A stretch of DNA of 64,000 bases from assembly GCA_000092065.1 (NCBI GenBank), contig CP000584.1; one strand, 5' to 3'. Positions 3,257-44,657 of the stretch are shown one piece after another. The notes under the pieces were generated by a model, which searched no databases, was not told the DNA's origin, and saw nothing but the letters and a program-made list of their open reading frames with translations. Numbering within the stretch: the stretch's first letter is position 1; each line of letters starts with the position of its first letter. The position numbers and the translations under genes were made by a program. This DNA comes from Ostreococcus lucimarinus. Taxonomy: Eukaryota.

Positions 3257-4885
3257 ATGCCGTCGCGCCGCACGATGCCGCGCGCGGCGCCGTCGTCGTC
3301 GTCGAGCGCGTCGTCGTCGAGCGACGATGGCGACGACGACGGCGTCGACGACACGCTGGCCGCGATGTCCGACGACGCGATCAACGCGCGCGTCGCGCCG
3401 TCGTTTTACGCGCTGACGCGAAGCATCGACCGCGAGGACCGACGCGCGTTTCATCGCGTGCACTCGATCGCGCGCGACGCCGCGTTCGTGGAGGCGCAGG
3501 GCGAGCGGTTTTTGCGCGATTCGACGCGCGCGGCGTTCGCGAACGCGCGCGCGGGAGCGTGGTACGCGGGGGGGGGGAGGTTCGCGTACGAGACGTGCTA
3601 CTTTAAGAGCACCGACGGACACAATAATAACTGGACGATGTCGGCGACGAGGTTGAATCGACGCGTGGCGATGGCGTGCGCGGCGGGGAGGGGAGGGATG
3701 ATCGTGGACGCGACGCGGAGCGCGGTGAAACGGTTTCCGGATGCGCTGTCGAAGACGGTGCCGATTTGGTGCGACGCGTTGAACAGGGCGTGCGCGAGGG
3801 CGAAGCGGGACGCGGGAGCGGCGGACGCGGACGATCGCGCGTGGTTCGAGGGACCGCATTTGCCGGAGTGGGTGGCGGAACACGAGCGGAACAGCATACG
3901 CGCGCTCGTGCCGGAGTTTGAGGCGAGTTTGAAGTCTACGGGATGGGACGTCGGCGAGCTCGCGGCGATTTTGGAAAAGCCGTTTCGATGCGTGTGGGTG
4001 AGTCGGGGCGAAGACGGCGCCGAACTCTCGCTCGAGTCGCTCGCCGAGGCGGACTTTACTCCGCTTATACTCGTCACGGCGAGCGCGCCGCTGCATTGGC
4101 GCGGTGAGCGGCGGGTCGGGGTGAACGGGCACAGTTTCGCGTACGTTCCGGGAGCCGCGGACGACGAGGAGAGTTGGTCGCGTGGACTCACGGCTGACAT
4201 GTTTCACGAACACCGCGATGCTTTGCTCCACGCTTCTGAGCGCGACATTGACAACATCATCGCGCGCATCGTCGACGGTCGAATCGGGAAGCCGCGCGAG
4301 TTGGATCCTCGGTCTCGACTCGCGCCGCGAGGGTGTGCGCCGATGGACAGCCGCGCAGCGGAGGAGGCGAATCGTTCGAACGGTGCGATTTGCGCCGGCG
4401 GCATGCGAGAGCTTTCGCCAGAATGCGGCATCGGTCGATGCTCGATCGCGTCGTTCGCCGTGTACGATCGCGCTGACATGGAAAAACTCGCGGACGCATT
4501 TCTTCACGTCGGGGAAACCGTCGTGGATCCGAGCAAGGCGTGCTCGACTGCGTTTCTGCACGTTCCAGCGAGAAAAGCGAAAGTGAGCCGAACAGATCTC
4601 ATGAAAGCACTGCCTCGATGCATCGACTTCGCTCGTCGGACGTTCGAAACGCCAGGCGCACGTCTGTGCGTCACGTGCGACGACGGCGTCGACCACTCTG
4701 TCGCCGTCGCCGTGGCGCTTTGCATCGCCATGGGACCGTCGCCGTGTTCAAACGCGGACTTAGACAAAGACGACGTGCGCAAACAACTAGCGGCGGTATC
4801 GAAAACCCATCCCGACGCCAGACCGACGCGCGCGTCGCTCAAACAAGTGTACAATTTCTTTCTTCATAGCGAGGTAGCCGATTAG
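3257..4885 (+). CDS. RIT1: tRNA A64-2'-O-ribosylphosphate transferase (Rit1 family)
   Basis: N-domain motifs SFYALTRSI and ANARAGAWY match Rit1 SIYNRLRSI and ANERCGSWY. The C-terminal DUSP-like segment CVTCDDGVDHSVAVAVALCI matches too. First ATG at 3257, with alternatives at 3275 and 3365. Confidence 0.7.
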   Translation: MPSRRTMPRAAPSSSSSASSSSDDGDDDGVDDTLAAMSDDAINARVAPSFYALTRSIDREDRRAFHRVHSIARDAAFVEAQGERFLRDSTRAAFANARAGAWYAGGGRFAYETCYFKSTDGHNNNWTMSATRLNRRVAMACAAGRGGMIVDATRSAVKRFPDALSKTVPIWCDALNRACARAKRDAGAADADDRAWFEGPHLPEWVAEHERNSIRALVPEFEASLKSTGWDVGELAAILEKPFRCVWVSRGEDGAELSLESLAEADFTPLILVTASAPLHWRGERRVGVNGHSFAYVPGAADDEESWSRGLTADMFHEHRDALLHASERDIDNIIARIVDGRIGKPRELDPRSRLAPRGCAPMDSRAAEEANRSNGAICAGGMRELSPECGIGRCSIASFAVYDRADMEKLADAFLHVGETVVDPSKACSTAFLHVPARKAKVSRTDLMKALPRCIDFARRTFETPGARLCVTCDDGVDHSVAVAVALCIAMGPSPCSNADLDKDDVRKQLAAVSKTHPDARPTRASLKQVYNFFLHSEVAD

Positions 4886-4940
4886 CGAGTAGCGAGGATT
4901 AGTTTAGCTAAAATCTATTGCAACGACACGAGCGAGGTCT

Positions 4941-5558
4941 CTAAACGCACAGTCTGTACGTGACGTACCGCCCCGCGGTCTCACTCGGCCTGATGATGCG
5001 CACGACTTGTCCGCGACGCATTCCGTAATACCGCGCGATCGGATCGTGCATCTGAATTCGTGGCAACTGCGTATCCTTCACCTTGTACCGATCCAGCAGC
5101 GTCCTCTTCTGATCGTCGCTCAGCAAAATATGTTCCGGCACCAACACGTGATCGATGATGTTCACCAACAACTCCGTCTCTTGGAACTGTTCGATGTAAA
5201 ACTTTTGCGTCTGACACTCCAGCAACGACTGCTTCGCGAACGGCGTCAGCGACGCCTGCACCACGATGATCGCTCGAAACACATTTTCATCCTTCATGCG
5301 CTTCGCCAGATCCTTAATCGTCTTCACACCAACCTTTTCCTCGTCCGGGAAGAACACGAAGATATTTTCCGAGGGATCGTCGCGTTTCGGCGCCAGGATC
5401 GTCAGGCTCTCTCGCTTTGGCTCTTCGCCGAAATCCTCCGTGAACGAATCGATATCTCTCTCGAGCTCTTTCGCGCTCACGAGGTATCCACGCGCTGCGA
5501 GCATTTTGTGAATCGTCTTGCGCACGCGGAACAACCGCGTTCGCTTATCGTTGCTCAT
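4941..5558 (-). CDS. RPB5: DNA-directed RNA polymerases I/II/III subunit RPABC1 (RPB5), 205 aa, single exon
   Basis: Full-length collinear match to the RPB5 family (…FFPDEEKVGVKTIK…HVLVPEH…DPIARYYG…GQVVRIIRPSETAG). ATG and TAG both verified. Confidence 0.9.
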   Translation of the reverse strand: MSNDKRTRLFRVRKTIHKMLAARGYLVSAKELERDIDSFTEDFGEEPKRESLTILAPKRDDPSENIFVFFPDEEKVGVKTIKDLAKRMKDENVFRAIIVVQASLTPFAKQSLLECQTQKFYIEQFQETELLVNIIDHVLVPEHILLSDDQKRTLLDRYKVKDTQLPRIQMHDPIARYYGMRRGQVVRIIRPSETAGRYVTYRLCV

Positions 5559-5818: not shown

Positions 5819-8710
5819 CTACAATTTTACGTCTAATCGAGGGATTCGGGTGGTGATTGCCGACGAGCGCGCGTCGTCGAGCGCGATTGGGTCGTCCGCG
5901 ATGCGCTCGAGCGCTGTTAAGGCGCGAGCTTTGCAATCAGCGGCGGCGGCGACGGCGAAGGAAGCCGCGGCGCGAACGTCGACGTCGCAGTCGGCGCGAT
6001 GGCGCCGCGCGGCGATGGCGGTGAAATGCTCTAAAGCGGTGGACAGAGGGGAGTTTTCGGCGTATGCGATGGCGACGGGGGTGTCTCGGAGAGAAGTGGC
6101 GACGAGGGCACCGGCGACGAGGGCGGAACGGCGGAGATGGGGTTGGTCGGAGTCTGCCAACGCGGGAGTGACGGCGAATTCAAGCACCGCGCGGCCGATC
6201 AACGGTCCATCGGTCGCGTTCTTGGCGTGCTTGGCGCACTGACCGAGTGTGTAGAGAATATGTCCGTTCACCATGGCGTCCAGGCCATCGGGGTTGTATT
6301 CTGGCGCGGACTGACGCTCGAGCCTTTGCGCCGCCGCGCGCAAGAGCGGCGCGACGAAGCACTCGCCTATGAGATGACTTCGCGTCGGCGCCGATGTCGC
6401 ACCTTTCGCTTGCATCTCCATGGATTTCGGCGCAAACCTTCGCTCGATACCCACGCGAGCAGTCGAACGAGTCGACGCCGAAGCATCGAGCAGGTGCTCG
6501 GCTTTTGACGGCGACGCGAGCTCCGTCATCGCCATGTCCAACGCGCTCAGCGTGTCCATAACTTGGGACGCGTCGCATTTCTCCGACAACGCGTGGTCGA
6601 TAATTGTTGGGCCTGCGAGACCAGGGGTCACCGTGAGCACCGAAGCTAAGCCTTGGCGCCGCGCGCGGTCGAGTGGGTCGGAGTCCGGCGTGGGCGGTTG
6701 CGCGTGCAAAATGGTGACAGCGAGATCCGCGGCGCACGACGCCAATTCGTGCGGCTGGCGCATGACGATATCGGAAACTGCGTGCACCGCACCTTCAGCT
6801 GCGTCCGCAATATCGATATCGGTCTGCCGAGTCGACGCATCGCCCGAACGCGCCTGCCTCAAGGCGCCGATGCACTCTCGTAAAGTTTGCGGCTTCGGCA
6901 GCGACGCGATTCGCGCTTCAGTCAAACTCGCTGGATCACGAGAACGAAGCGTCGCGTCGTCATCACTATCCATATCATACGGTACGAGCTCGTCATCGGA
7001 ATAGTCATCGCTATCGGAGGCATCCGAGTCGCTCTCGTCGCGGCGAAGGCTCCACATATCGACAACTTCGTCCGGGTCTTCGACTTTAATCTGAAACCCA
7101 GACGAACCGGTTAGATTGACGTTGGCGGCGATGGATTCTTTTTCATCGTCGCCGCCGCCGCCGCCGTCGTCATCATTGCAGACGACGAAGACGTCGTCTT
7201 GAACGATCGACTCTATGGTCTGTTCCCATTCCGATTCCTCGTCCGATGACGCGTCGACGTCGTCGCCGTCATCGACGAGTCGCAAAGGCTTGCTCGCGTC
7301 CATCTTCAGCGAAAGTTCCAAGGCGACTTTGCTCGCGTGTCTGCGCGGACGCAATGATGGCGAATCGAGACGCGCGCTCACGCCTTTCAATAACATTTGC
7401 GTCGGCTTTCCTCGCATAGCGTCCCACTCTTCGCTCGGCAACGCCGCAAGAATTGCTCGAACGCTCGACGTGAGCGTCCGTTGTAGCTCGACGGACGCCT
7501 CACGCACGAAACCTTCCCCGGACCAAGTATCCAAGAGTGCGAATATATTCGCATCGCTCGCCGCTTTGACGCGCGTGGCGTCGGCGCCTCGACGAATGGG
7601 TCGCAGAATCGTCAACCGTAAGAGCGCCGGCAGCGCGGCGCGCGGCGCGCTCTTTCGCAATAGCAACGTTTCGCACAGCGCGAATCGCGTGGCTTCGCAC
7701 GCCCAATACCTATCGCGTAGCAACACGCGCAAAACTAAATCTAGAGTTCGCCAGCTGCAGTTCACGCTCGACTCGTGACCGTCGCATTCGGCGAAGAGTT
7801 CTGAAATCCATCGACACGCGGCGTGCGCGTCGCTAACCTCATTCATCATGGTCGTCGCCCAGGCCAACGACGCCGGCACTTCATCGCCCTCGACGATCGC
7901 GCGTATCGCATCCACACCGAGCTCGCGCACGCGCGGCGCGAGCTCGCGCAGCGTGGCTCGGGCCACCGCGCGCGCGGCGCCGCGGCGACACATTCTACTC
8001 GCCGTCGCCGCCGCGCTCGCCGGCGCGTCCTCGCCGGCGTTCAACACCTGCCGAGCCAACTCCGCCTCGTACGCCTCTACACTGCGAAACACTGGTATAT
8101 CAAACCGCCGATCGAGCCGATCGAACGCTCGCAGCGCGACGTCCAGCGTCTCTTTCGCCGCGCGCGCGTCCGCCGTCGTCCCCGCCGCCATCCGCGTCAA
8201 CCTTCCCACGACCCCTCGTCGCACGAGCTCGACGTAATACGTCACCGCGCTCCGCACGATCGCGTCATCATCGCTTCCCGCGCGCGTCGCGCCCCGCGTC
8301 GTCGCCATCGCGTCGACGCACGCGCGCGCCGCGCCCGCGCCCGCGCGTTCGTCCTCATCCGCCTCCTCCCACGAGAACCACGCGTCGACGCACGCGCGCC
8401 GATCGTCCTCGCGCATGCTCTCGTACCACAATCCGCGTCCGCATCGCAGCGCGCACGCGCACGCGTCCTCGTGCGCGCGAACGTCCGCGTCGACGACGTC
8501 CTCGTCGACGACGTTTTCGTCTTCGTTCGCGCGTTCCGACCGCTCGCGCGCGCGCGCGCGCGCGAACGCCCGTCGCAGCGCCCGCGACGCGTCGACGAAC
8601 GCGTCTCGCGCGCGCGCTTCGACGCACGCGTCGAGCGCGCGCTCGAGCGCGCCCGAGCGCGCCATGAAGTGTCGCGAAGTTCGTTCGGCGTCGCGACAAC
8701 GCGACGCCAT
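5819..8710 (-). CDS. TEL2: Telomere length regulation protein TEL2 (TELO2, TTT-complex HEAT-repeat protein)
   Basis: Long alpha-solenoid ORF with an acidic segment DSDDYSDDELVPYDMDSDDD, which is the CK2/PIH1D1-binding DSDD…VPYDM signature of TEL2. The conserved C-terminal domain is present. ATG is the reverse complement of 8708-8710; the listed ORF extends upstream as an artefact. Confidence 0.7.
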   Translation of the reverse strand: MASRCRDAERTSRHFMARSGALERALDACVEARARDAFVDASRALRRAFARARARERSERANEDENVVDEDVVDADVRAHEDACACALRCGRGLWYESMREDDRRACVDAWFSWEEADEDERAGAGAARACVDAMATTRGATRAGSDDDAIVRSAVTYYVELVRRGVVGRLTRMAAGTTADARAAKETLDVALRAFDRLDRRFDIPVFRSVEAYEAELARQVLNAGEDAPASAAATASRMCRRGAARAVARATLRELAPRVRELGVDAIRAIVEGDEVPASLAWATTMMNEVSDAHAACRWISELFAECDGHESSVNCSWRTLDLVLRVLLRDRYWACEATRFALCETLLLRKSAPRAALPALLRLTILRPIRRGADATRVKAASDANIFALLDTWSGEGFVREASVELQRTLTSSVRAILAALPSEEWDAMRGKPTQMLLKGVSARLDSPSLRPRRHASKVALELSLKMDASKPLRLVDDGDDVDASSDEESEWEQTIESIVQDDVFVVCNDDDGGGGGDDEKESIAANVNLTGSSGFQIKVEDPDEVVDMWSLRRDESDSDASDSDDYSDDELVPYDMDSDDDATLRSRDPASLTEARIASLPKPQTLRECIGALRQARSGDASTRQTDIDIADAAEGAVHAVSDIVMRQPHELASCAADLAVTILHAQPPTPDSDPLDRARRQGLASVLTVTPGLAGPTIIDHALSEKCDASQVMDTLSALDMAMTELASPSKAEHLLDASASTRSTARVGIERRFAPKSMEMQAKGATSAPTRSHLIGECFVAPLLRAAAQRLERQSAPEYNPDGLDAMVNGHILYTLGQCAKHAKNATDGPLIGRAVLEFAVTPALADSDQPHLRRSALVAGALVATSLRDTPVAIAYAENSPLSTALEHFTAIAARRHRADCDVDVRAAASFAVAAAADCKARALTALERIADDPIALDDARSSAITTRIPRLDVKL

Positions 8711-9563
8711 GGCGAGCGACGACGCGAAGGCGGCGAAGAAGGCGAAGAAGGCGAAGAAGGAGAAGAAGGAAAAGAAATCCAAGCGCGCGCGCGAGGACGA
8801 GGAGGCGCGCGCGACGGAGCGCGGTGAGGAGAAGAAACGCTCGAAACGCGACGCCGGCGGCGGCGGTGCGAACGAGGAAAAACCGACGACGACGGACGAC
8901 GAGGCGACGGAACAGCGCGACGGGAAGAGCGATGCGGCGAAGAAAGACGCGCCGGCGCCGGGGACGTTTCCGACGTCGTCCACGCACGTGTACATGGGGA
9001 ACCTGGCGTGGACCATCGACGAGGCGGCGCTCGGCGAGGCGTTCGCCGACTGCGGAGAAATCGTGAGCGTGAATTGGTTCGAAGAGAAAGCCACGGGGAA
9101 GTTTTTAGGGGCTGGAGTGGTTGAGTTTAAAACCGCGGAGGCGGCGGCGGCGGCGGTGGCGGCGACGGGGCGGTTGGTGCATAAACGCGAGACGCCGGTG
9201 CGATTTTGGGAAAAGCGCGGCAACACGGCGGAGGAGCGAGCGGCGGCCAAGGCGGCGGGCGGGGGCGGGCGCGCGGAGATCAAGCCCATGGGGGAGAAGC
9301 CTGAGGGATGTTACACGCTGTTCATGGGGAATTTGAACTTTCAGATCGACGACGATACGATTTATAAATTCTTCATGGACGGCGCGGGCGTCGGTCCGCA
9401 CACCATTCGTTGGCTCACGAACAAAGAGACCGGGGAATTCCGCGGCGTGGGATTCGCAGATTTCTCGGGCGCCGAGATCGACGCGGCGGCGAAGTTACAC
9501 GGGGAGAAGTGCATGGGTCGGCCGATTCGTCTCGATTGGCAGGCGCCGAGCAATCGCGGTTGA
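8709..9563 (+). CDS. Nucleolin/Nsr1-like RNA-binding protein: Lys-rich N-terminus plus two RRMs
   Basis: KKAKKAKKEKKEKK tract, then RNP motifs (VYMGNLAWTIDE…KFLGAGVVEF; LFMGNLNFQID…FRGVGFADF). ATG at 8709. Confidence 0.8.
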   Translation: MASDDAKAAKKAKKAKKEKKEKKSKRAREDEEARATERGEEKKRSKRDAGGGGANEEKPTTTDDEATEQRDGKSDAAKKDAPAPGTFPTSSTHVYMGNLAWTIDEAALGEAFADCGEIVSVNWFEEKATGKFLGAGVVEFKTAEAAAAAVAATGRLVHKRETPVRFWEKRGNTAEERAAAKAAGGGGRAEIKPMGEKPEGCYTLFMGNLNFQIDDDTIYKFFMDGAGVGPHTIRWLTNKETGEFRGVGFADFSGAEIDAAAKLHGEKCMGRPIRLDWQAPSNRG

Positions 9564-9604
9564 GTAATAAAATCTACGCGTCTCTTACAAAGACTTCTAT
9601 AAAA

Positions 9605-10696
9605 CTAACTAGCGCGCGACTCGCCGCCCTGCGCGTAGGCGCGGTCGTGCGGACAACTCGGGATGGGCAGGGGCAGGAAAGGGAACGGCGCAACCGAGGT
9701 TTCACTCAGCGCCGGTCCCAAGGCGCGCGATCTGAACTGCTTCAATCTCTCTCGTTCGGGCGACCAATCGTACGCCGCCGCGAACGGCACGCAGTGCCAC
9801 GGGAAATTGGCGCTGGCTTGCCTCAAAGACTCGTACGCGTCCACGGTGTGATCGCGAGGCACTCGGTGCAAACACGCTAGAGCTTGAAACGCGGGCAAGT
9901 ACAGCAGAGAGCCGAAGAACATGCGCCGAGCGGCTGGAAACGACGGCGCCGCGTAAAACGCCGCCGCCGCGGCGACGAGCGGCGCGCCGAGCGCGAGCGT
10001 CTCGTACGCGAACGGCGACGTCGTCACCCCCATCGCGCACGCTAACACGCCGAGTGGGAGCAGTGCCAACGAGTTTCTCACCGCCACGCCCGCGACGCGA
10101 CGTCCCGTTTTGTCAAACATTGGATGCGACAACATGCGATACCCCCCGTTGACGTAGTCGTCCTTCCCCATGTACGCCAACGCCATAAAATGCGGCATCT
10201 GCCACAAATACAGCGCCGACGCCAACACGAACGCCCCTGGATCCAACGTCCCGAGCTCGTTCGCGGCCGCCCAACCCATGAGCGGGGGAATCGCCCCCAC
10301 GACCGCCCCCACCCACGTGTTCAGAAAGTGCACCCGCTTGAGCGCCGTGTACGCCCCCGCGTACAGCGCGATGTTCCCCGCCCCCAGCGCCGTCGTCGTC
10401 TCGTTCGTCGCGATCGCTAAAACACCCACCCCACTCACCGCGCACGCGCCCGCGAACGCCATCGCGACCCCGGCGCCGCACCTTCCGCTCGGCAACGGCC
10501 GACCCGCCGTGCGTCGCATCGTCCCGTCCGGCGCCCGCTCCACCACCTGATTCAGCGCGTTCGCGCTCGCGCTGCACAGCATCGTCCCCGCGCACGTCGC
10601 CGCTAATTTTCCCGCGTCCATGCTCGTCGGCGAGCCGAGCACGAACCCCGCCGCCGCCGTGCTCACGACGAACGCGCTCAGGCGAAACTTGCTCAA
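9605..10696 (-). CDS. COX10: Protoheme IX farnesyltransferase (heme O synthase, COX10), 5' end unresolved
   Basis: KFRLSAFVV…, NIALYAGAYT and the diagnostic WQMPHFMALA motif. The track start at 10696 is a TTG and the frame stays open upstream with no ATG, so the N-terminus (mitochondrial presequence) is not defined. Confidence 0.8.
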   Translation of the reverse strand: MSKFRLSAFVVSTAAAGFVLGSPTSMDAGKLAATCAGTMLCSASANALNQVVERAPDGTMRRTAGRPLPSGRCGAGVAMAFAGACAVSGVGVLAIATNETTTALGAGNIALYAGAYTALKRVHFLNTWVGAVVGAIPPLMGWAAANELGTLDPGAFVLASALYLWQMPHFMALAYMGKDDYVNGGYRMLSHPMFDKTGRRVAGVAVRNSLALLPLGVLACAMGVTTSPFAYETLALGAPLVAAAAAFYAAPSFPAARRMFFGSLLYLPAFQALACLHRVPRDHTVDAYESLRQASANFPWHCVPFAAAYDWSPERERLKQFRSRALGPALSETSVAPFPFLPLPIPSCPHDRAYAQGGESRAS

Positions 10697-10774
10697 ATCG
10701 CGCGCCGTCTCCAGCAGCGCGCGCGCCGTGCGCGGCGTCGTCCACGTCGGCGCGAGCGTCGACGCGCGCGTCGA

Positions 10775-10809
<35 letters not shown>

Positions 10810-10884
10810 CGCTCGACGCGAACGCGCGCGGCGCGTCGAGCGCGCGCCGCGCCGAGCGCGAGCGCGCGCGCGCGCGCGGCGCGC

Positions 10885-12438
10885 ATGACGACGCGACGAC
10901 GAGTGCGACACTCGGCGACGCGCGCGCGACTCGACATGGCGCTCGCGGCGCGCGCGACGACGACGCGCGGCGACGCGGGACGCGCGGTGACGCGACGACG
11001 ACGCGCGTCCATCGCGCGCGCGCGCGAGACGACGCGCGCGAGCGACGCGCGCGACGGCGGCGCGACGGCGGGGACGATGCCGACGGGGACGAAGGTGGCG
11101 CTCGACGACGCGCGCGCGGCGTGCGTCGCGCTCGCGCTCGAGGAGGCGGACGCGGTCGGGAAGATCACGCTCACGGGACCGGGGCGAGGGACGGCGGCGG
11201 AGGCGCATCGAAGGGTGGAGTTTCGATGGGTGACGATTCGGGGGCGGACGGCGCTGCAGCGGACGCGGTACGACGAACGACAGGCGTTCACGAGTAATCA
11301 CGCGATCGAGGGCGAAGGAGGGCTCGTTTCGAAGAGCGCGAGCGGGGATGAGGACGCGATCGGGGCGAGGGAGGCGCTGGAGGAGGCGCTGAGGGCGGGA
11401 TATAAACATTGGCGCGTCGAACACGCGCGCGGCGGTTACAACGTGACGGCGAACGCGAAGAAGGCTCGGGCGACGATTTCTAGGGACAACGCGAGTAAGG
11501 GGACGCTGATAGACGGTAGTGCGAGAACGCAGACGATCGTCGTCGGCCCACAAGGGCACGACCGCGAGAAGTCGAGGTTACTGACGGGGGAGGACCCGTT
11601 TTTGCGATACGTCGGCGTCGTCGCCAAGGATGGAACCATCAAGGCGAGCAAGCGGGACAAGTACAAGCAAGTGGAGGAGTTTCTGAAGATTTTGAACGTT
11701 GCTTACGACACCGCGACGTCGGCGGGACACATGAAGGGCGGCGATGAGACTCGCCCGCTTCGTGTGTGCGATTTAGGATGCGGGAACGCGTATCTCACGT
11801 TTGGGGCGTACTCGCTCTTGAGCTCGAAGAGACGCGTGCCTACAAACGTAGTGGGCGTCGACGTGAAGCGCCAAGCGCGCGAACATAACTCGCGGGTGGC
11901 CAAAGAGCTAGGTTGGGATGCGTCGATGAGATTCATTGAAGGCACGATCGCCGACGCCGACGTGACTTTCGTAGACGGTTCAGAGGAGGACGCGTTCACC
12001 GACGTAGTGCTCGCTTTGCACGCGTGCGACACGGCGACGGATGAGTCCATCGTTCGAACGGTGCGTTGGTGCGCTCCACTGGCGCTCATCGCGCCGTGCT
12101 GTCATCACGATCTCCAAGTGCGTTTGAAAAGCGCACCTCATGTTGCTTTCCCGCCGATGGCGAGGCACGGCATCCTCAGCGAACGTCTCGGTGACGTTCT
12201 CACGGACGCATTCAGAGCTCACATTTTGCGACTGCTGGGATATCGCGTCGACGTCATGGAATTCGTAGGAGGGGAGCACACGCCTCGAAATACTCTCATT
12301 CGAGCGATCCGCACGAACGCGTCGGCGTCGAAGGCGGCGTGGGAAGAGTATGATCACATGTGTTCAACGTGGGGCGTCACGCCTTTTCTCGCGGACGCCC
12401 TCGCCGAGGAGTTGGCGGTGGCGCGTCGCGCGATCTGA
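10885..12438 (+). CDS. SAM-dependent methyltransferase (Methyltransf_32-like; LGCGNAYLTF…ALHACDTATD)
   Basis: Class-I methyltransferase motif I and the ALHAC(G/D)xATD signature. First ATG at 10885 (alternative 10936). Confidence 0.6.
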   Translation: MTTRRRVRHSATRARLDMALAARATTTRGDAGRAVTRRRRASIARARETTRASDARDGGATAGTMPTGTKVALDDARAACVALALEEADAVGKITLTGPGRGTAAEAHRRVEFRWVTIRGRTALQRTRYDERQAFTSNHAIEGEGGLVSKSASGDEDAIGAREALEEALRAGYKHWRVEHARGGYNVTANAKKARATISRDNASKGTLIDGSARTQTIVVGPQGHDREKSRLLTGEDPFLRYVGVVAKDGTIKASKRDKYKQVEEFLKILNVAYDTATSAGHMKGGDETRPLRVCDLGCGNAYLTFGAYSLLSSKRRVPTNVVGVDVKRQAREHNSRVAKELGWDASMRFIEGTIADADVTFVDGSEEDAFTDVVLALHACDTATDESIVRTVRWCAPLALIAPCCHHDLQVRLKSAPHVAFPPMARHGILSERLGDVLTDAFRAHILRLLGYRVDVMEFVGGEHTPRNTLIRAIRTNASASKAAWEEYDHMCSTWGVTPFLADALAEELAVARRAI

Positions 12439-12479
12439 GTGTAAATCTTGTTGTAAATTTACCTTCGCTAGATTAGTAC

Positions 12480-14138
12480 CTACACCCGCTCGCCGAGAAC
12501 CGTGCCGGATACGGTCCTCCGAAATCTTCGTTGATCGCCCGTGATCGACGCTTGCCCGAACGCGCGAGGCGTCGTCTCGCCATCCATGTTCCAAGAACGC
12601 GGCGAGATGTGATCTGTGTCCGACTCGTTCGCGCCTCTAAACGCACCTAATCCCTGCTCGAAGGTAGCCTTGGACTTGGCGATGTCTTGGATGCTCTGCA
12701 TCAAGTTCGCACCGAATTGCATGTTGTCCTTACCGCGTTCGCGCTTGTTGAAGCTCACAATGAACCATATGAAAATCACGCTGATGACGACGTTGATGAC
12801 GACAACGAAACCTAGACCGGCGACGGTGCCGAAGTGACCGATGACGTACACGCACAACGCGGCATCTCCGCCCAGGAGCGCAATTGTAAGAAGCAGACGG
12901 ACGGTGTTGAAGAGGAAAATACGTATGACGAGTTCCTTTACGAAGTCGACTATGCCGCTCCAGTTTGATTCCTGTACCGCCTGTCCCATCTCCGCATCAT
13001 CCGTCTCGTGTCTCGCCGCCTCGACCTCGGATACAATTTTTGCGTGTTCCCATTCCTCGTCCGTCATTCCGGGCTCGCGCTTTAGCTCGTGAGTGTCCGT
13101 AGCCCCTAGAGGGCCGACTCCGAGCACGTGCGCGATGCCTTCGGGAATCATGCTCGCCCAGTTTGACGACCCTGACGCTCGATGTAATCCGCCCGACGTT
13201 TTGACGTCGTGCTCGCCACTATGACTGCGCGAATGATCAGGTGCATGACGCGTCGATTGTTGCGGACTCGCCACGGTTTCTAAAACTTTCGACAAAATTG
13301 CGGCGGACGCCGGCGAGCCGCCGCTGCCGCGAGAGTCTCGCTGACCCCCGCTGCTGGCGCCCGTCAAGTACTCCAAACCAGCCTGAACGATCGGTGCGTC
13401 TAAAAAGCCATGTGCCGAACCTTGCGACAATCGTCGCTCGCTCGCCGATCCCAAGCTCCGTCGACGTTGCGTCTCGCCCCCGCTCGCCCGCCTTCGTCTG
13501 TCCAAATCCGGGCTCTCCAGGCTCGCCCGCGTCATCTTATCGAACATCTTCCGCATCAGCGTCTTGAATTCTTCCAGCGTAAACATTCCGAGATCATCAT
13601 CCGCGTTCGACGCGTCGACCGCGTCTTTGACGCACCGCGTCCACATGTTTGAAGCCCAACCTAAATCCACGCGGTCGCCGCGTTCCTCGAGCAACGCGCC
13701 GACGACGCTCACGCAATCACCCGCGAATTCCATCGCTTGCTCCGACGTGATCCCTCGCACCCCTCGCGCGTCCATCGCTCGAAACACGAGCTCGACCTTC
13801 GTCTCGAAACTCCCCTTACACAGCACTCCCAACAAAATCAACAATCGCGTCGTCTTCGCCGCGCGTCCCTGGTCGTCGCTCCCCTCGTCGTCCACCATCA
13901 CCGACTCCAGCGCCGTCTCCCGCACGCACTCGCTCATCACCAATCCAAACCGTCCCAGCGCGTCTCCGAACGCGCCCACCGGCGTCGTCGCCGCCATTCT
14001 CGCGTCGCGCGCGCGTCCCGCGAAGCCTTGAATTTCCTCCACGAGCTCCTCGATCGGCGTTTTCGCCCACGCCGACGCCGCGTGGATCTCGCCGAGCGCG
14101 CCCAGGACGAGCAGGTGGTCCATCGCGTTCGCCGACAT
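12480..14138 (-). CDS. EF-hand pair protein with two C-terminal TM helices (function unknown)
   Basis: EF-hand-like segments (ETKVELVFRAMDARGVRGITSEQAMEFAGD; FTLEEFKTLMRKMFDKM) and hydrophobic helices near the C-terminus. First real ATG is the reverse complement of 14136-14138; the track start is a GTG. Confidence 0.55.
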   Translation of the reverse strand: MSANAMDHLLVLGALGEIHAASAWAKTPIEELVEEIQGFAGRARDARMAATTPVGAFGDALGRFGLVMSECVRETALESVMVDDEGSDDQGRAAKTTRLLILLGVLCKGSFETKVELVFRAMDARGVRGITSEQAMEFAGDCVSVVGALLEERGDRVDLGWASNMWTRCVKDAVDASNADDDLGMFTLEEFKTLMRKMFDKMTRASLESPDLDRRRRASGGETQRRRSLGSASERRLSQGSAHGFLDAPIVQAGLEYLTGASSGGQRDSRGSGGSPASAAILSKVLETVASPQQSTRHAPDHSRSHSGEHDVKTSGGLHRASGSSNWASMIPEGIAHVLGVGPLGATDTHELKREPGMTDEEWEHAKIVSEVEAARHETDDAEMGQAVQESNWSGIVDFVKELVIRIFLFNTVRLLLTIALLGGDAALCVYVIGHFGTVAGLGFVVVINVVISVIFIWFIVSFNKRERGKDNMQFGANLMQSIQDIAKSKATFEQGLGAFRGANESDTDHISPRSWNMDGETTPRAFGQASITGDQRRFRRTVSGTVLGERV

Positions 14139-14330: not shown

Positions 14331-15395
14331 ATGTCGAGCAAAAATAAACCGTGCTACAAGTGCGGACAGGGCGGACACTGGGCGAAGGACTGCACGGTGC
14401 CGCGCGAGCGATGGATTTCAAAAGAGGCGAGCGACGCGCTGAAAACGCGCGAGGACGGCGCGACGACGACGACGACGGACGACGTCGAGGGCGGCGCGCG
14501 CGGCGAGGGCTCGGGCGATGATCGCGGCGCGCGCGCGGAGAAGCGGAAGTCGAGCGCCGGGACGACGCGGCGACCGAAGTTTAGCGTGCACGATCACTTG
14601 CTCGGGCCGAACGGGCTCGGGGCGATGTACAGAGAGTTCCCGGAGAAGTTTGCCGCGCGGTCGAAGGGCGAGGGACACGAGGAACACGATATGAATTTGT
14701 TGGCGACGATGTACAAGGAGTGGGCGGTGAAGATGTACCCGTACGCGCCGGCGGAGGAGACGCTGGCGAGGGTGGACAAGTTGCAAAGCGACAAGAGCGT
14801 GAAGATGGCGGTGCGGGAGTTTAACGAATTAGATTTCGGCGGCGGTGTCGGCGAGGCCGTGGATGCGATGGAGCGCGGGGAAAACGCGGGTGAAGGCGGC
14901 GAAGACATCGATTTCCCGGACGACGACGACGACGAGGCGCCGGCGACGGCGACGGTCGCCGACGACGTCGATTTCCCAGACGACGACGTCGATTTCCCGG
15001 ACGACGATGGATTTGAGGAGCAAGATTACGTGTTTGACGACGATGAAGACGAGGACGCCGCGCGCGCGATGCAGGAGGCGGAGGCGAGCGGCGACGACGA
15101 TGATGATGAAGAAGAAGACGAAGCCGTGCAAGGTAAGCGCGGCAAAAAGATCAAGGGCGCGACGGATTCGACGAAGAATGCGTTCGAAAAGCTGGCGAAG
15201 AAATTAGGAAAAGACGTTCCGGTCGCGAACGGCGAAGAGCTGAACCCGAACTCGATGCTCTCGCCTCAACGGAAAATATTGCGCGTACGACCGAAGATTT
15301 TGGACGCATCGAGCGACGAAGAAAACGAACCGCCGAGTGAGCCCGCGCGACGACGACGCGCCGTGCACGGTATGGACGATGATGAGGATGAGTAA
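14331..15395 (+). CDS. TIPIN: TIPIN/Csm3/Swi3-like replication fork protection protein with an N-terminal CCHC zinc knuckle
   Basis: CYKCGQGGHWAKDC knuckle. Swi3-domain signature KGEGHEEHDMNLLATMYKEWAVKMYPYAPAEETLARVDKLQSDKSVK. Acidic DFPDDD repeats. ATG at 14331. Confidence 0.55.
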   Translation: MSSKNKPCYKCGQGGHWAKDCTVPRERWISKEASDALKTREDGATTTTTDDVEGGARGEGSGDDRGARAEKRKSSAGTTRRPKFSVHDHLLGPNGLGAMYREFPEKFAARSKGEGHEEHDMNLLATMYKEWAVKMYPYAPAEETLARVDKLQSDKSVKMAVREFNELDFGGGVGEAVDAMERGENAGEGGEDIDFPDDDDDEAPATATVADDVDFPDDDVDFPDDDGFEEQDYVFDDDEDEDAARAMQEAEASGDDDDDEEEDEAVQGKRGKKIKGATDSTKNAFEKLAKKLGKDVPVANGEELNPNSMLSPQRKILRVRPKILDASSDEENEPPSEPARRRRAVHGMDDDEDE

Positions 15396-15439
15396 TTGTA
15401 AAAGCGCGCTTCTTTCAATATTTCAACTTACATACGCGA

Positions 15440-16723
15440 CTACGCCTTGGTCTTCTCGCGAACCGACGACGAGGACAGCACTCGCACCTCGTCGCCGTCA
15501 ATTTCGAGAACCTGCGGTTCGGCACCCAGAACGCCGAAAGACATCCCGACATCGATTCTCCAGATTTGACCGTTGCACTCGCAGTTTGCGCCGCCGAGCT
15601 GCGGCGTGTGTCCGACGACGAGTCGCGAGACGCCGTCAATCATGCCCAAAGTCTTCCCCAGCAGTTCGCACGAGGTCGAACGATCTTCGTCCGTGGCAAA
15701 CTTTTCAGTGCCGTACGCGCGATGCCAGACGATTGAATCTCGCACGCCACCGATCGCCATGCCGAGCGCCTGGCGCGTCTCGTCGTCCTTGATCTCTTTC
15801 CCGCGCATCCAATCCGTCACCGCTCGGTTGAGCTTATCGAGGCCGAATTCGACGTGCCTAGGGACTAAGCCACCGTGCGCGAACACGGTATCGTTCACGA
15901 TCAACACCGTGTGATGCATAGAGAGCTGCTGGGCTAAAGGTCCGCCCGGGGAGAACAACCCGATGCGCGCCTTGCTTTGCCTCGCCCACGCGTCCTCCTC
16001 GTCCACGCCGAACGCGTCTCGGAACTTATCCCCGAACAACTTCACTAAATGCTCGCTGAATCGCGTCGATTCCCCGAACGCACCGCGCGACACGTATCTA
16101 AAGTCTCCCGAAACGTTCAAAACCTCGTGATTGCCGTTCATCACGTACACGCGTCCGCCTTGCTTCTGCGCCTCCTTATCCAACTTTTGAAGCAAGATCA
16201 AAATCCCTATCTCGTCGTCCCCGCGGTCGAGAATGTCCCCGAGCTGCACCAACGTCGTGTCGCCGCCCACCCATCGCGGGTTCCCCGCGTCGTCTTCGTC
16301 GTCCAGGACCCCCGCCATTCGCAGCGCTCGTCTCGCCTGTCCGATGTCCCCGTGCAGGTCCCCTATCGCCACCACGCGTCCCGGCGCCGTCACTCGCAGC
16401 TGCGGGTACGTCTCCTCGCCCTTCGCCTTCGCCCGCGTCGCGCATTCGCGCGTCGCGCCCCGCGTCGCGCGTCCCGGGACCGCCGTCGCTCGCGTCCCTC
16501 GCGCCCCCTCGCTCGTCCCTCGCGCTCCATCCCCTCGCGTTCGCGTCGCGCGCGCCATCGTCGTCGCCGCGCGCGCGTCCAGCGGTCCGCGCGTCATCGC
16601 CCGCGCCGCGCTCGCGCCTCGCGGCGCCGTCGCCGGTCGCGCCCGCGCGTCGCGCGCGTGTCTCGCGCCGCCGACCCGCGCGTGGCGCGCGACCGCGCGA
16701 CCGAGGCTCGACGCGGCGCGCAT
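15440..16723 (-). CDS. SLP: Shewanella-like PPP-family Ser/Thr phosphatase (calcineurin-like metallophosphoesterase), probably plastid-targeted
   Basis: GDLHGD…GDILDRG…GNHE…VAHGG metallophosphatase motifs. First ATG at 16723; alternatives at 16597 and 16558 would shorten the transit peptide. Confidence 0.7.
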   Translation of the reverse strand: MRAASSLGRAVARHARVGGARHARDARARPATAPRGASAARAMTRGPLDARAATTMARATRTRGDGARGTSEGARGTRATAVPGRATRGATRECATRAKAKGEETYPQLRVTAPGRVVAIGDLHGDIGQARRALRMAGVLDDEDDAGNPRWVGGDTTLVQLGDILDRGDDEIGILILLQKLDKEAQKQGGRVYVMNGNHEVLNVSGDFRYVSRGAFGESTRFSEHLVKLFGDKFRDAFGVDEEDAWARQSKARIGLFSPGGPLAQQLSMHHTVLIVNDTVFAHGGLVPRHVEFGLDKLNRAVTDWMRGKEIKDDETRQALGMAIGGVRDSIVWHRAYGTEKFATDEDRSTSCELLGKTLGMIDGVSRLVVGHTPQLGGANCECNGQIWRIDVGMSFGVLGAEPQVLEIDGDEVRVLSSSSVREKTKA

Positions 16724-29628: not shown

Positions 29629-30123
29629 CTACGCCAACGATCCCAACGTCCCGCGCTCGCCTAAATCCCCCGCCGCGGTCTGCCCTCCCGCGGCCTCTCC
29701 CGCCATCTTCGCTCGAGCCTCCGCGAACAATTTATTCTGCAGCGCCATCGCGTCCTCCGCGCTCATGTCGATCCGCTTCCTCTTCTTCTTCGCCTCGCGC
29801 TTTTCGTTTTCCTCCTCCTTCGCCTCGTCGCGCGCGATTTCGCACTCAGCCTCGTACGACTCGAACCCCAGCGCTCGCAGCGCTCGCAGCACGTGCTCCG
29901 CCGTTATCGTCGACTTTCCCTCTCGCGTCGACGCCTCGTTCGCCTCCGCGCTCACCGCGTTCACGAATTCATCCCCGCACTCGCACACCATCTCGCGACA
30001 CTCGTTTGAGATTTTCTGATTCGCGTCGATCGCGCGCAGCGCGTCGTTGATCATCTTGTGCAGCGTCGCGCGCGGGAGCTGCAGCTCATCGTCGCTCACG
30101 CCGTCGCGGTCGAAGCCGTCCAT
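29629..30123 (-). CDS. DR1: Negative cofactor 2 beta (Dr1/NC2-beta, histone-fold)
   Basis: LPRATLHKMIND…VSAEANE…KSTITAEHVLRALRALGFESY is collinear with human DR1. ATG is the reverse complement of 30121-30123. The upstream ATG at 30219 would add an Arg-rich, non-conserved extension. Confidence 0.8.
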   Translation of the reverse strand: MDGFDRDGVSDDELQLPRATLHKMINDALRAIDANQKISNECREMVCECGDEFVNAVSAEANEASTREGKSTITAEHVLRALRALGFESYEAECEIARDEAKEEENEKREAKKKRKRIDMSAEDAMALQNKLFAEARAKMAGEAAGGQTAAGDLGERGTLGSLA

Positions 30124-30217
30124 CGCGCGTCCCGTCGCGCGCGCGAATGATGGCTGCGAATGCGCGCATCGACGGGACGCGAACGCGCGCGGCACGTCGC
30201 GACGCGGCGCGGCGCGC

Positions 30218-31162
30218 ATGCCGCGGTGCGCGAGCGACGACCGACGATGGTCGTCCGCGGACGTCCCGGGCGAGGCGTCGACGCGCGCGCGACGCGAGCG
30301 ACGCGAGCGACGCGTCTCGAACGCGACGACGACGGCGACGACGGCGTCGGACGCGGACGAACGCGACGGACGCGGACGACCGCCGCGCGCGACGACGACG
30401 ACGGGGACGCGCGCGAACGAGACGAACGACGCGACGACGACGGCGCGCGACGACGCGGCGCCGAGCGTGCTGCAAAAATTGCAAAAGTGGGGGGATTACG
30501 AGTCGTGCGGGGACGTCGTGCGCGGGACGCGGTTGATTCCGATGAAGACGCCGCTGTCGCCGCGGTACGTGGAGGAGAATTGCGTGAACGCGCTGACGAT
30601 GGAGTCGCTGATGCGAGGACAGCGCGCGCGAGGACGGGAGATCGGGCTGATCATCGATCTCACGAATCACGATTGTTTGTACGAGGACGACATACCGAGC
30701 GACGTGGCGCGAGTGCACGTGCGAAACGTGGCCAAGGCGGTGCCGAGCGCGAGCGACGTGCGAAAGGCGACGGAGGCGGCGAATAAGTTCTTGGCGACGG
30801 CGGGGAATGAGAATAAGTACATCGCCGTGCACTGCGCGTACGGATTCAATCGCACGGGGTTCGTGATTTGTTGTTATCTAGTGCAAATGTTCGGGGCGAC
30901 GCCCGCGGAGGCGATGGAGCTCTTCGCCGAGGCGCGGCCTCCGGGATTGAAACACTTGCACTTCAGGCACGAGCTCGTCGAACGATACGCGCCGAGCGAG
31001 ACGAGAGGCGATTCAGATTCCCCGATCGACGCCTTGTCGCGGTTGCGAATCCGTCGCTCGTTCGACAGCGAGCCGGATTTCCGCAACGCAATCGACGACG
31101 AGGACGAAAACGACACGCTCGACATCGAGATGAATCGCAAGCACTGGCGCGCGGCGCCGTGA
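30218..31162 (+). CDS. Cysteine-phosphatase of the RNA-triphosphatase/DUSP11 (PIR1) type (mRNA-capping-enzyme-like triphosphatase domain without the guanylyltransferase part)
   Basis: GTRLIPMKTPLS…IGLIIDLTNHDCLYE…IAVHCAYGFNRTGFVICCYLV (HCxxGxxRTG P-loop). ATG at 30218. Confidence 0.65.
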   Translation: MPRCASDDRRWSSADVPGEASTRARRERRERRVSNATTTATTASDADERDGRGRPPRATTTTGTRANETNDATTTARDDAAPSVLQKLQKWGDYESCGDVVRGTRLIPMKTPLSPRYVEENCVNALTMESLMRGQRARGREIGLIIDLTNHDCLYEDDIPSDVARVHVRNVAKAVPSASDVRKATEAANKFLATAGNENKYIAVHCAYGFNRTGFVICCYLVQMFGATPAEAMELFAEARPPGLKHLHFRHELVERYAPSETRGDSDSPIDALSRLRIRRSFDSEPDFRNAIDDEDENDTLDIEMNRKHWRAAP

Positions 31163-43753: not shown

Positions 43754-44107
43754 GCGCGCGCGCGCCGTCGGCCCCATCACCGCTCGCGCGATCGCCTCCG
43801 CCCACGATGACGTCGTCGTCATCGACGCCGACGCGTCGCCGCGCGCGCGCGCGCCGTCGCCGCTCCTCGCGCGCGCGGCGCCGCTCGTTCGCCGTGACCC
43901 ATCGCCCGCGCGTCCCGACGACGACGTCGCGCACCGCGCGCGCGCGTGCGCACCGCGCGTCGTCGCGCGCGACGCGCCCGCGTTCGCGCCACCGCGCGGC
44001 CACGCCTCGGGGCGCGCGCTCGACGCGCGCGCGACGTGGAACCGCATCGCGCGCGTCGCGCGGTGACGCGATTTCGCGACGCGACGCCGCGCTCGTCGTC
44101 GCGCCAT
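42359..44107 (-). CDS. ctpA: C-terminal processing peptidase (S41, CtpA; photosystem II D1 carboxy-terminal protease)
   Basis: PDZ plus S41 catalytic region (…NPGGLVQAGVEIARLF…GRSASASEILTGALKDNCRATVVGSKTYGKG…). The track start at 44218 is a GTG; the first ATG is the reverse complement of 44105-44107. The (GCC)n repeat at 43704-43760 encodes poly-Ala. Confidence 0.8.
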
Positions 44108-44657
44108 GCTCGCCGCGCGCGATGCGCTCTCGCCGCGCGCGTGCGCGCGCGCGTTCGCCCTGCTCGTCCTGCTCGGCGCCCCGCTGTTTGCGACGCGCGG
44201 GGACGCGACGGCGTTCACCGTCGTCGACGGCGTCGCGAGTTGGCTGAGCGCGCAGAACGGCGGAAGAAAACTCGCGGGATGGCGCGCGGTGGTCGTCGAG
44301 GCGTGCTATTACCCCGACAGCGCGATCGCGCGCCTTAGCGGTCGATCGGTCGAGGCGACGGCGACGCGGATCACGCGAAAGGCGGCGCAGATGCGCGAGG
44401 CGCTCGGCGAGGCGGGGGCGCGCGAGTGCGCGCTGGGGTGCGCGCTCGCGCTGCTGGGGAGCGTCAAGTATTGCGTGAACGGCGATATCGGACCGTACGG
44501 CGTGCTGGCGGCGCTCGAACTCGGGTATTCCGTGTTCGCGAAGGGACTTCCCGCGATGCGGGCGAACGTGGTGGGGACGACGTGCGTCGTCGTCTTCGGC
44601 GCGTTGTCGTCGCCGAGCGCGCGCCGACGCGCGCGGGCGAGGGCGAAGCGAGATTAA
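44106..44657 (+). CDS. Candidate small secreted/membrane orphan protein (183 aa)
   Basis: ATG at 44106 shares the GCCATGC palindrome with the CtpA ATG. Signal-like N-terminus, non-repetitive interior and a hydrophobic C-terminus. No homology recognised. Confidence 0.3.
   Translation: MLAARDALSPRACARAFALLVLLGAPLFATRGDATAFTVVDGVASWLSAQNGGRKLAGWRAVVVEACYYPDSAIARLSGRSVEATATRITRKAAQMREALGEAGARECALGCALALLGSVKYCVNGDIGPYGVLAALELGYSVFAKGLPAMRANVVGTTCVVVFGALSSPSARRRARARAKRD

Follow-up and report, generated by a model that had tools for sequence, protein, structure and literature searches.

The genes for TEL2 (TELO2) and for a nucleolin-like protein with two RRM domains probably form a conserved head-to-head pair in the Ostreococcus lucimarinus nuclear genome, which is compact and GC-rich, with start codons at 8665 and 8709 and 43 non-coding bp between them, and the CCATGG that both genes appear to use as a start would be a by-product of this arrangement (Table 1; all positions are those of the 64,000-nucleotide stretch of contig CP000584.1 that was analysed, referred to here as the window). 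Comparison with orthologous loci places the most likely TEL2 start at 8665 (MARSGALE...), 45 bases further in than the ATG at 8710 from which an earlier note on this DNA had read the protein.

The gene identities proposed in that note are supported by Pfam domains on both strands. The minus-strand product carries both domains of TEL2/TELO2, the TTT complex subunit and telomere length regulation protein, namely TELO2_ARM (PF25320; 75.4 bits, Pfam cut-off 27) and Telomere_reg-2 (PF10193; 31.3 bits, cut-off 23.6), and the plus-strand product is an RRM-domain protein with RRM_1 (PF00076) at 69.8 bits in two stretches. "Nucleolin" is the JGI name for the latter gene. As in nucleolin proper, a charged N-terminal region (MASDDAKAAKKAKKAKKEKKEKKSKRAREDEE...), Lys-rich in all orthologues, precedes the RRMs, whereas the Gly/Arg-rich (GAR/RGG) C-terminal domain that should follow them is absent, the protein ending ...GRPIRLDWQAPSNRG straight after RRM2. 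The very tight head-to-head packing also stands: the genes are divergent, their start codons lie within 1 kb of each other, and only 43 bp separate the supported ATGs. This tight pair is kept in loci L001-L011, and seven related lineages have equivalent spacers of 43-108 bp.

Table 1. Features at the TEL2/RRM locus, in window coordinates.
Feature	Position	Strand	Remarks
TEL2/TELO2 coding sequence, best supported	5819..8665	-	948 aa, begins MARSGALERALD...; stop 5819-5821
Second CATG palindrome	8663..8666	none	Supported TEL2 start 8665-8663; plus-strand ATG 8664-8666 in RRM ORF frame (MKCREV...)
Spacer	8666..8708	none	43 bp; ATG-free on both strands
In-frame codons (MASRCRDAERTSRHF) upstream of supported TEL2 start	8666..8710	-	15 codons, scored by codon usage; peptide not conserved
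12-mer AGTTCGTTCGGC	8678..8689	none	Sole interior spacer block common with the 92% relative; DNA, not protein, conserved
Perfect 9-bp inverted repeat GGCGTCGCG-ACAA-CGCGACGCC	8687..8708	none	Ends just 5' of the RRM ATG; lineage-specific
CCATGG palindrome	8707..8712	none	Local sequence ...gcgacgCCATGGcgagc...; contains RRM start codon and antisense ATG
RRM gene	8709..9563	+	284 aa; Lys/Glu-rich N-terminus, two RRM_1 domains; stop 9561-9563

The shared CCATGG itself is confirmed by the sequence and the translations, in that the plus-strand ATG at 8709-8711 opens the RRM gene product (MASDDAKAAKKAKK...) and the antisense ATG (8710-8708, complement) lies in the frame of the TEL2 ORF, with the translation MASRCRDAERTSRHFMARSGALE... 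This ORF is open on the minus strand from 5819 up to 9289-9310, continuing for about 640 nt past the supported start and antisense through the RRM gene, and it has no stop upstream of 8710. Therefore, any in-frame ATG within it appears usable, and the ORF boundary does not mark 8710 as a start. Because CATG is a palindrome, a C before a start codon gives an ATG on the opposite strand, and C is found at -1 in 14 of the 42 roughly predicted starts in the window; such an antisense ATG has a one-in-three chance of lying in the frame of the partner gene. In eight related lineages, the antisense ATG has, counted from the TEL2 start, the frames 0, 1, 1, 2, 0, 2, none and 0. Within the window the in-frame CATG coincidence occurs twice at the TEL2/RRM pair, 45 nt apart (at 8665 and at the CCATGG), and in-frame shared CATGs are also present at 30217-30220 and 44105-44108, in two further closely spaced divergent pairs. 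The window is enriched for CCATGG (13 sites, with 4.6 expected), and the majority of these sites are intragenic. Overall, the coincidence of start codons is no greater than chance expectation.

The Met at the MARSGALE column (8665) is common to the orthologue N-termini P0001-P0005, P0007 and P0008, whose starts are automatic gene calls on metagenome contigs, and the residues before it are not conserved; P0002, for example, carries the different peptide MSRHEFGPNELHF in place of the extension. A codon model was trained on 16 hand-picked ORF segments, for which the sole check was an open frame with a terminal stop, and the model was scored against the other five frames. Under it, the log-odds of the 15 extra codons sum to -4.67, which ranks among the bottom 1.2% of 15-codon windows in the TEL2 body (mean +3.6, sd 3.4), and the next 15 codons reach +5.8. 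A model seeded by ORF length and GC3 was dropped, as wrong-frame ORFs among its seeds gave nonsensical log-odds. TEL2 is called at 948, 954 or 963 aa by different gene callers. A self-trained codon-score caller picks 8665 for TEL2 and 8709 for the RRM gene, and both starts are also used in the gene calls of L008, which is identical to the window over 8300-9100 and whose TEL2 product, P0001, is 98% identical. The 15-codon stretch is probably untranslated, or at most an unconstrained extension. Two observations count against 8665. The 8710 ATG has G at both -3 and +4, a stronger context than at 8665, where T is at -3 and G at +4, so scanning ribosomes should use 8710 if any TEL2 mRNA begins upstream of it. 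The 92% relative also has an in-frame upstream ATG, at -39 (MSRHEFGPNELHF), so that TEL2 may tolerate, and be made with, N-terminal extensions that are short and variable.

The spacer comparison rests on two haplotype groups, and a metagenome scan for further spacer haplotypes yielded 68 loci, of which 7 were homologous, all in the same two groups. Samples rich in this organism include JGI 3300021959 and 3300048103 and ENA ERZ10646685. Relative to the L003/L061 haplotype (92% protein identity), the spacer shows 5-nt and 12-nt indels between flanks that are about 95% identical on both sides, and neither the overlap nor the extended N-terminus is conserved, the peptide being different. In L003, 52 nt lie between the TEL2 start and the CCATGG that holds the RRM start codon, so that this CCATGG is out of the TEL2 frame, and the shared 12-mer lies in different TEL2 frames in the two haplotypes, reading AERT in the window and PNEL in L003/L061. 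Within the window, this 12-mer does not recur above chance (17 matches with at most two mismatches, 16.8 expected), and TCGCGA, which occurs twice in the spacer, is not enriched (113 sites, 142 expected). The 9-bp inverted repeat was considered as a conserved hairpin and rejected. Its RNA fold of -20.4 kcal/mol has a marginal z of -2.0, 8 of 200 shuffles being equally stable, and four spacer folds from three relatives (two from L003, one per strand, and one each from L001 and L006) are not unusually stable, their z values spanning -0.64 to +0.83.

A start of the RRM gene at 8709, as first described, is well supported by a Met column that is almost invariant across 17 orthologues. Different callers give this gene 284 or 299 aa, and the longer product (P0013) is a metagenome call from 8664 (MKCREVRSASRQRDAMASDD...). 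A start at 8664 would share the CATG of 8663-8666 with the TEL2 start codon, overlapping it, and it must be considered extremely improbable: the ATG is in frame and open and was chosen by that one automatic call, but the RRM orthologues begin at the MASDD/MG column with unconserved residues upstream of it, and the equivalent ATG in L003 is out of frame and followed by a stop after 10 codons. Two short JGI contigs, L012 and L013, were considered as transcripts and set aside, being plain fragments of the window (8568-10576 and 8993-10349) that end in UbiA, with poly(A) absent.

The arrangement proposed by the earlier note has TEL2 translation beginning at the 8710 ATG, with overlap of the two start codons in CCATGG and with the 5' end of each mRNA inside the coding sequence of its partner. 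This is unlikely. The 8710 ATG is in frame, open and in the strong context GCC ATG G, and a comparable antisense ATG, open and in frame, is present at -66 in L011, but the extension is unconserved in sequence, length and frame even in a relative with 92% protein identity, it has atypical codon usage, and chance accounts for a coincidence that is also seen at 30218 and 44106. The supported starts are only 43 bp apart, so that back-to-back initiation complexes would have to occupy shared DNA, which makes crossing 5' ends plausible; however, in three relatives (L003, L001 and L009) the corresponding ATG, antisense to the RRM start, is not in the TEL2 frame. An mRNA that included it would carry a uORF of 65-70 codons across the TEL2 start, which would block translation of TEL2, and from this we infer that TEL2 transcription begins inside the spacer. 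Orthologue N-termini, spacer indels, the out-of-frame CCATGG in a relative and codon usage all favour 8665 over a TEL2 start inside CCATGG. Initiation at the downstream Met (...MARSGALE...), the very outcome that the note had set against its own proposal, is thus what the comparative evidence from orthologous loci points to. It is equally doubtful that TEL2 is transcribed from within the RRM coding region, with the 8710 AUG used and the two mRNAs complementary at their 5' ends. If this were true, antisense or promoter interference would couple the RRM protein, which is of a ribosome-biogenesis type, to TEL2, a PIKK/TOR co-chaperone, and the pairs at 30218 and 44106 would hint that the habit extends across the genome.

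Less probable still, and very unlikely on the present comparison, is mixed use, in which TEL2 transcription starts would be dispersed, with some mRNAs including the 8710 ATG and encoding an isoform longer by 15 aa, most beginning in the spacer and encoding 948 aa, and the extension being neutral. The window and L003 both retain an upstream ATG that is in frame with TEL2 and has no stop before the TEL2 start (at -45 and -39, respectively), with unrelated peptides, which fits such use, but the evidence against translation from 8710 also speaks against a selected function for it.

In the favoured head-to-head arrangement with starts at 8665 and 8709, the RRM start, lying in a palindromic C-ATG-G context, would read as ATG on the opposite strand, this ATG would land in the TEL2 frame by the one-in-three chance, and the scarcity of stops in GC-rich DNA would leave the TEL2 ORF open far upstream of its real start. 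The 43-bp spacer would act as a shared compact bidirectional promoter, with both transcription start sites within it or at its edges and with leaders of at most a few tens of nt, possibly overlapping each other slightly. The 5' leaders need no longer lie inside the partner's coding sequence, as had been deduced from overlapping start codons; what stands of that deduction is that the leaders are very short or that the 5' ends overlap. This is a genome-wide property and is not special to the TEL2/RRM pair. Of the 15 divergent pairs roughly called in the window, 7 are separated by no more than 100 bp (26-94 bp), and two of these seven (the pairs 30123/30218 and 44047/44106) have the same in-frame shared CATG; in relatives, the called divergent gaps at neighbouring pairs are 26-66 bp.

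Bidirectional pairs in Mamiellophyceae (Ostreococcus and Micromonas) provide the closest setting, the window being likewise intron-poor, GC-rich and gene-dense, with very short intergenic DNA and an RPB5 that is 80-82% identical to Micromonas proteins. In Micromonas, the mean intergenic distance is 167-211 nt and transcripts are on average about 145 nt longer than coding sequences (PMC4815162), and RNA-seq assemblies of O. tauri join adjacent genes because of overlapping UTRs (PMC4378021). The 43 bp between TEL2 and the RRM gene is well below this Micromonas mean, yet typical for tight divergent pairs here and in relatives (26-94 bp). In the genome papers on Micromonas and Ostreococcus, neither published 5' UTR lengths nor start-site maps were found.

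For compacted eukaryotic genomes (microsporidia and nucleomorphs), overlapping transcription was reportedly described by Williams et al. in 2005. The spacing in the window is likewise too short for separate promoters and UTRs, and transcripts would be expected to start or end in neighbouring genes; the difference is that the upstream ATG pattern of the relatives would place the start sites in the spacer and not deep in the neighbour. Translation from short leaders is known for the mammalian TISU element and for the very short 5' UTRs of Giardia and microsporidia, and TEL2 and the RRM gene would need leaders of a few tens of nt or fewer if both transcription starts lie within the 43 bp. The TISU consensus SAASATGGCGGC is unmatched upstream of both ATGs (CGCC-ATGGCGAG and CTTC-ATGGCGCG). 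The RRM gene starts with CGCCATGGCGAG and TEL2 with CTTCATGGCGCG, and the sole match to TISU, the ATGGCG core, corresponds to Met-Ala with the preferred GCG codon. Start-codon misassignment in GC-rich genomes, with the same rare stops, open ORFs and disagreement between callers, shows no difference from the situation at this locus, and this is the explanation adopted here.

The real feature at this locus is a class of divergent genes 26-94 bp apart from ATG to ATG, a known outcome of the compaction of Mamiellophyceae genomes. The sharing of about 40 bp by two initiation complexes is a fair question genome-wide, and is not specific to the TEL2/RRM locus. The main value of the finding concerns annotation: in compact GC-rich algal genomes, open ORFs together with antisense ATGs arising from C-ATG contexts make divergent starts seem to overlap and lead gene callers to disagree.

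The region in which both genes begin reads ...cgcgacgCCATGGcgagcgac..., with CCATGG at 8707-8712. Besides the plus-strand ATG at 8709-8711, this palindrome holds a minus-strand ATG (complement of 8708-8710) that lies in the frame of a long ORF on that strand. Pfam assigns this ORF the domains TELO2_ARM (75.4 bits) and Telomere_reg-2 (31.3 bits), and the plus-strand protein two RRM_1 domains (69.8 bits); the latter is nucleolin-like in part only, as it combines a charged N-terminus with two RRMs and has no C-terminal GAR domain. The coordinates, gene identities, and frames of the earlier note, which had TEL2 and the RRM gene sharing one CCATGG as overlapping divergent start codons, all agree with the sequence, the translations, and Pfam. 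The genes are indeed tightly packed head to head but probably do not share a start codon, judging from orthologue N-termini, spacer indels, codon usage, and gene calls.

The TEL2 ORF itself provides no start boundary, because it has no stop upstream of 8710 and is open from 5819 to 9289-9310, antisense across the RRM gene. Evidence of four independent kinds favours the following Met in that frame, MARSGALE (8665-8663), and a TEL2 start at 8665 is considered likely. When TEL2 is aligned with its orthologues, the proteins P0001-P0005, P0007, and P0008 all have a Met in the MARS column, and residues upstream of it are absent or unrelated (MASRCRDAERTSRHF in the window vs. MSRHEFGPNELHF in the 92%-identical P0002). 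A codon model built from 7,762 codons in 16 hand-picked ORF segments of the window, scored relative to the other five frames, gives the 15 codons at 8710-8666 a sum of -4.67. This places them in the bottom 1.2% of windows of that length along the TEL2 body (mean +3.6, sd 3.4), and the 15 codons that follow MARS reach +5.8. A simple caller using the same model picked 8665 and 8709, and the same two starts appear in the gene calls for L008, a locus with no difference from the window over 8300-9100. Initiation context is stronger at the 8710 ATG (G at -3, G at +4) than at the 8665 ATG (T at -3), and the 92% relative (loci L003/L061) also keeps, in L003, an in-frame, stop-free upstream ATG, the peptide of which is unrelated. 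Against the orthologue and codon evidence, a TEL2 start at 8710 with overlapping start codons, as originally proposed, is improbable, and mixed use of 8665 and 8710 is more improbable still; if some TEL2 mRNAs begin above 8710, the product would be an isoform longer by 15 aa.

Comparison of the window type (the window, L008, L037, L038, L068, L077, and L051) with the L003/L061 type bears on the same point. The two share ~95% identity as far as ...GCGCCATGAAGTG and once more from the beginning of GCCATGGCG... onward. Identity collapses in between, where the sole block common to both is AGTTCGTTCGGC, shifted by flanking indels of 5 nt and 12 nt. In the TEL2 frame this block translates as AERT in the window and PNEL in L003, so that it is conserved as DNA and not as protein. 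In L003, 52 nt separate the RRM-start CCATGG from the TEL2 start, which puts this CCATGG out of frame with TEL2. The RRM start at 8709, judged by conservation, is solid, its Met column being nearly invariant in 17 orthologues, all of which continue into a Lys-rich tract. An upstream ATG at 8664, used in a 299-aa call (P0013), was rejected, since it is unconserved and its L003 counterpart falls in another frame, with a stop 10 codons on. The Lys-rich N-terminus of the RRM protein (8725-8775) arises from an imperfect 9-nt repeat, GCGAAGAAG/GAGAAGAAG, whose unit number varies between the two types and among orthologues, and which resembles a coding microsatellite prone to slippage.

Each of the supported starts forms a CATG palindrome (8663-8666; 8708-8711), and the 43-bp spacer is 1 mod 3, so each start codon has an antisense ATG in its partner's frame; hence the differing choices of gene callers (TEL2 948, 954, or 963 aa; RRM gene 284 or 299 aa). 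Chance suffices for this observation. A C at -1 occurs in 14 of the 42 roughly predicted starts in the window, and across eight lineages the frames in which the antisense ATG falls with respect to the TEL2 start (0, 1, 1, 2, 0, 2, none, 0) look random. Two further divergent pairs, with starts from the rough caller only, repeat the coincidence: the CATG start of the plus gene holds an antisense ATG in the open frame of the minus gene (Table). The TEL2 8710 case resembles the familiar upstream ORF extension of GC-rich DNA. Both the RRM and the TEL2 ORF overrun their supported starts by hundreds of bases, antisense into the neighbour (8238-9563, plus; 5819-9310, minus), because stop codons are rare in GC-rich DNA, and gene calls on identical metagenome DNA consequently disagree (RRM 284 vs. 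299 aa; TEL2 948 vs. 954 aa).

Coordinates of start sites, shared-CATG divergent pairs, and intervening ORFs
Feature	Location	Strand	Genes or product	Remark
RRM gene start	ATG 8709-8711	+	opens 284-aa protein MASDDAKAAKKAKKAKKEKK...	
Tight divergent pair, in-frame shared CATG	30123/30218 (30123-30220)	-/+	NF-YB-like histone-fold gene (-), dual-specificity phosphatase (+)	spacer 94 bp; identities by Pfam
Tight divergent pair, in-frame shared CATG	44047/44106 (44047-44108)	-/+	S41 peptidase (-), unknown 183-aa ORF (+)	spacer 58 bp; identities by Pfam
ORF between TEL2 and RRM gene	L014 2703-4001		PhyH-domain gene	
ORF between TEL2 and RRM gene	L015 3225-4001		unannotated 142-aa ORF	

The 43-bp spacer, which has no ATG on either strand, would probably act as a compact TATA-less bidirectional promoter shared by the two genes, which would both have their transcription start sites within it or at its edges. 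In L003 and two other related loci (L001, L009), an out-of-frame uORF of 65-70 codons covering the TEL2 start would begin at the antisense ATG of the RRM start, the context of which is good in L003 (GCCATGG). L001 would also have a uORF of 40 codons over the RRM start, opened by the reciprocal ATG. Because mRNAs bearing such uORFs would translate the main ORF poorly, start sites probably lie downstream of those ATGs, which would leave leaders shorter than about 45-55 nt. None of the spacer elements examined is tied to function: TCGCGA is not enriched and the 12-mer AGTTCGTTCGGC does not recur in the window, and a perfect 9-bp inverted repeat with a 4-nt loop (8687-8708), ending one base before the RRM ATG, is marginal as an RNA hairpin (-20 kcal/mol, z = -2.0), with no comparably stable fold in the spacers of three relatives. 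If in the RRM leader, this hairpin would sit directly at the AUG. The start codons do not match the TISU short-leader consensus.

The order Methyltransf_32 - UbiA - RRM <-> TEL2 - RPB5 - Rit1 - REX1B is kept in the related loci L001-L011, where supported TEL2 and RRM starts lie 43-108 bp apart, and the locus, on this comparison, is a conserved head-to-head pair. In more distant relatives the two genes are still close, with an ORF between them (Table); direct contact is therefore confined to the clade of the window, where either a gene was lost or, in the other relatives, one was inserted. Divergent pairs are normally this tight here, with spacers of 26-94 bp in 7 of 15 roughly called pairs in the window and called gaps of 26-66 bp in neighbouring divergent pairs of relatives. 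Several larger values are probably over-estimated, since the caller trims low-complexity N-termini. The UbiA/methyltransferase pair (10621-10936) has a spacer of 314 bp in the rough model vs. 61-66 bp in the L008 and L001 gene calls, probably a start-calling artefact of Ala/Arg-rich low-complexity N-termini, which may be targeting peptides. Convergent neighbours lie 41-55 bp apart, stop to stop (9563-9605, 12438-12480, 15395-15440, and 4885-4941; 41 bp from RRM stop 9563 to UbiA stop 9605), which leaves room only for tiny or overlapping 3' UTRs like those reported for Micromonas and Ostreococcus.

The window has 53-73% GC per kb and 42 ORF-based gene models in 64 kb by a rough call that does not allow for introns. 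For RPB5 (4941-5558), the best match among those listed is 94% identical, an MMETSP transcript is 86%, and the best named ones are Micromonas at 80-82% (M. commoda 80%, M. pusilla 82%). The best TEL2 and RRM matches (98-100%) come from metagenome assemblies; one RRM homologue is from Mamiellaceae sp. RCC2288, and the searched collection returned no close NCBI- or UniRef-sourced match for either gene. The window seems to derive from a compact Mamiellaceae picoalga whose lineage lacks annotated reference proteins in that collection and is abundant in several marine and estuarine metagenomes. Overlapping transcription is described for microsporidia and nucleomorphs, and the TEL2/RRM packing is broadly like it. 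In Micromonas, transcripts are on average only about 145 nt longer than coding sequences and the mean intergenic distance is 167-211 nt (PMC4815162), and in O. tauri overlapping UTRs fuse neighbouring genes in RNA-seq assemblies (PMC4378021); the short leaders proposed for the pair agree with these data. Overall, the arrangement fits the genome compaction already known in Mamiellophyceae.
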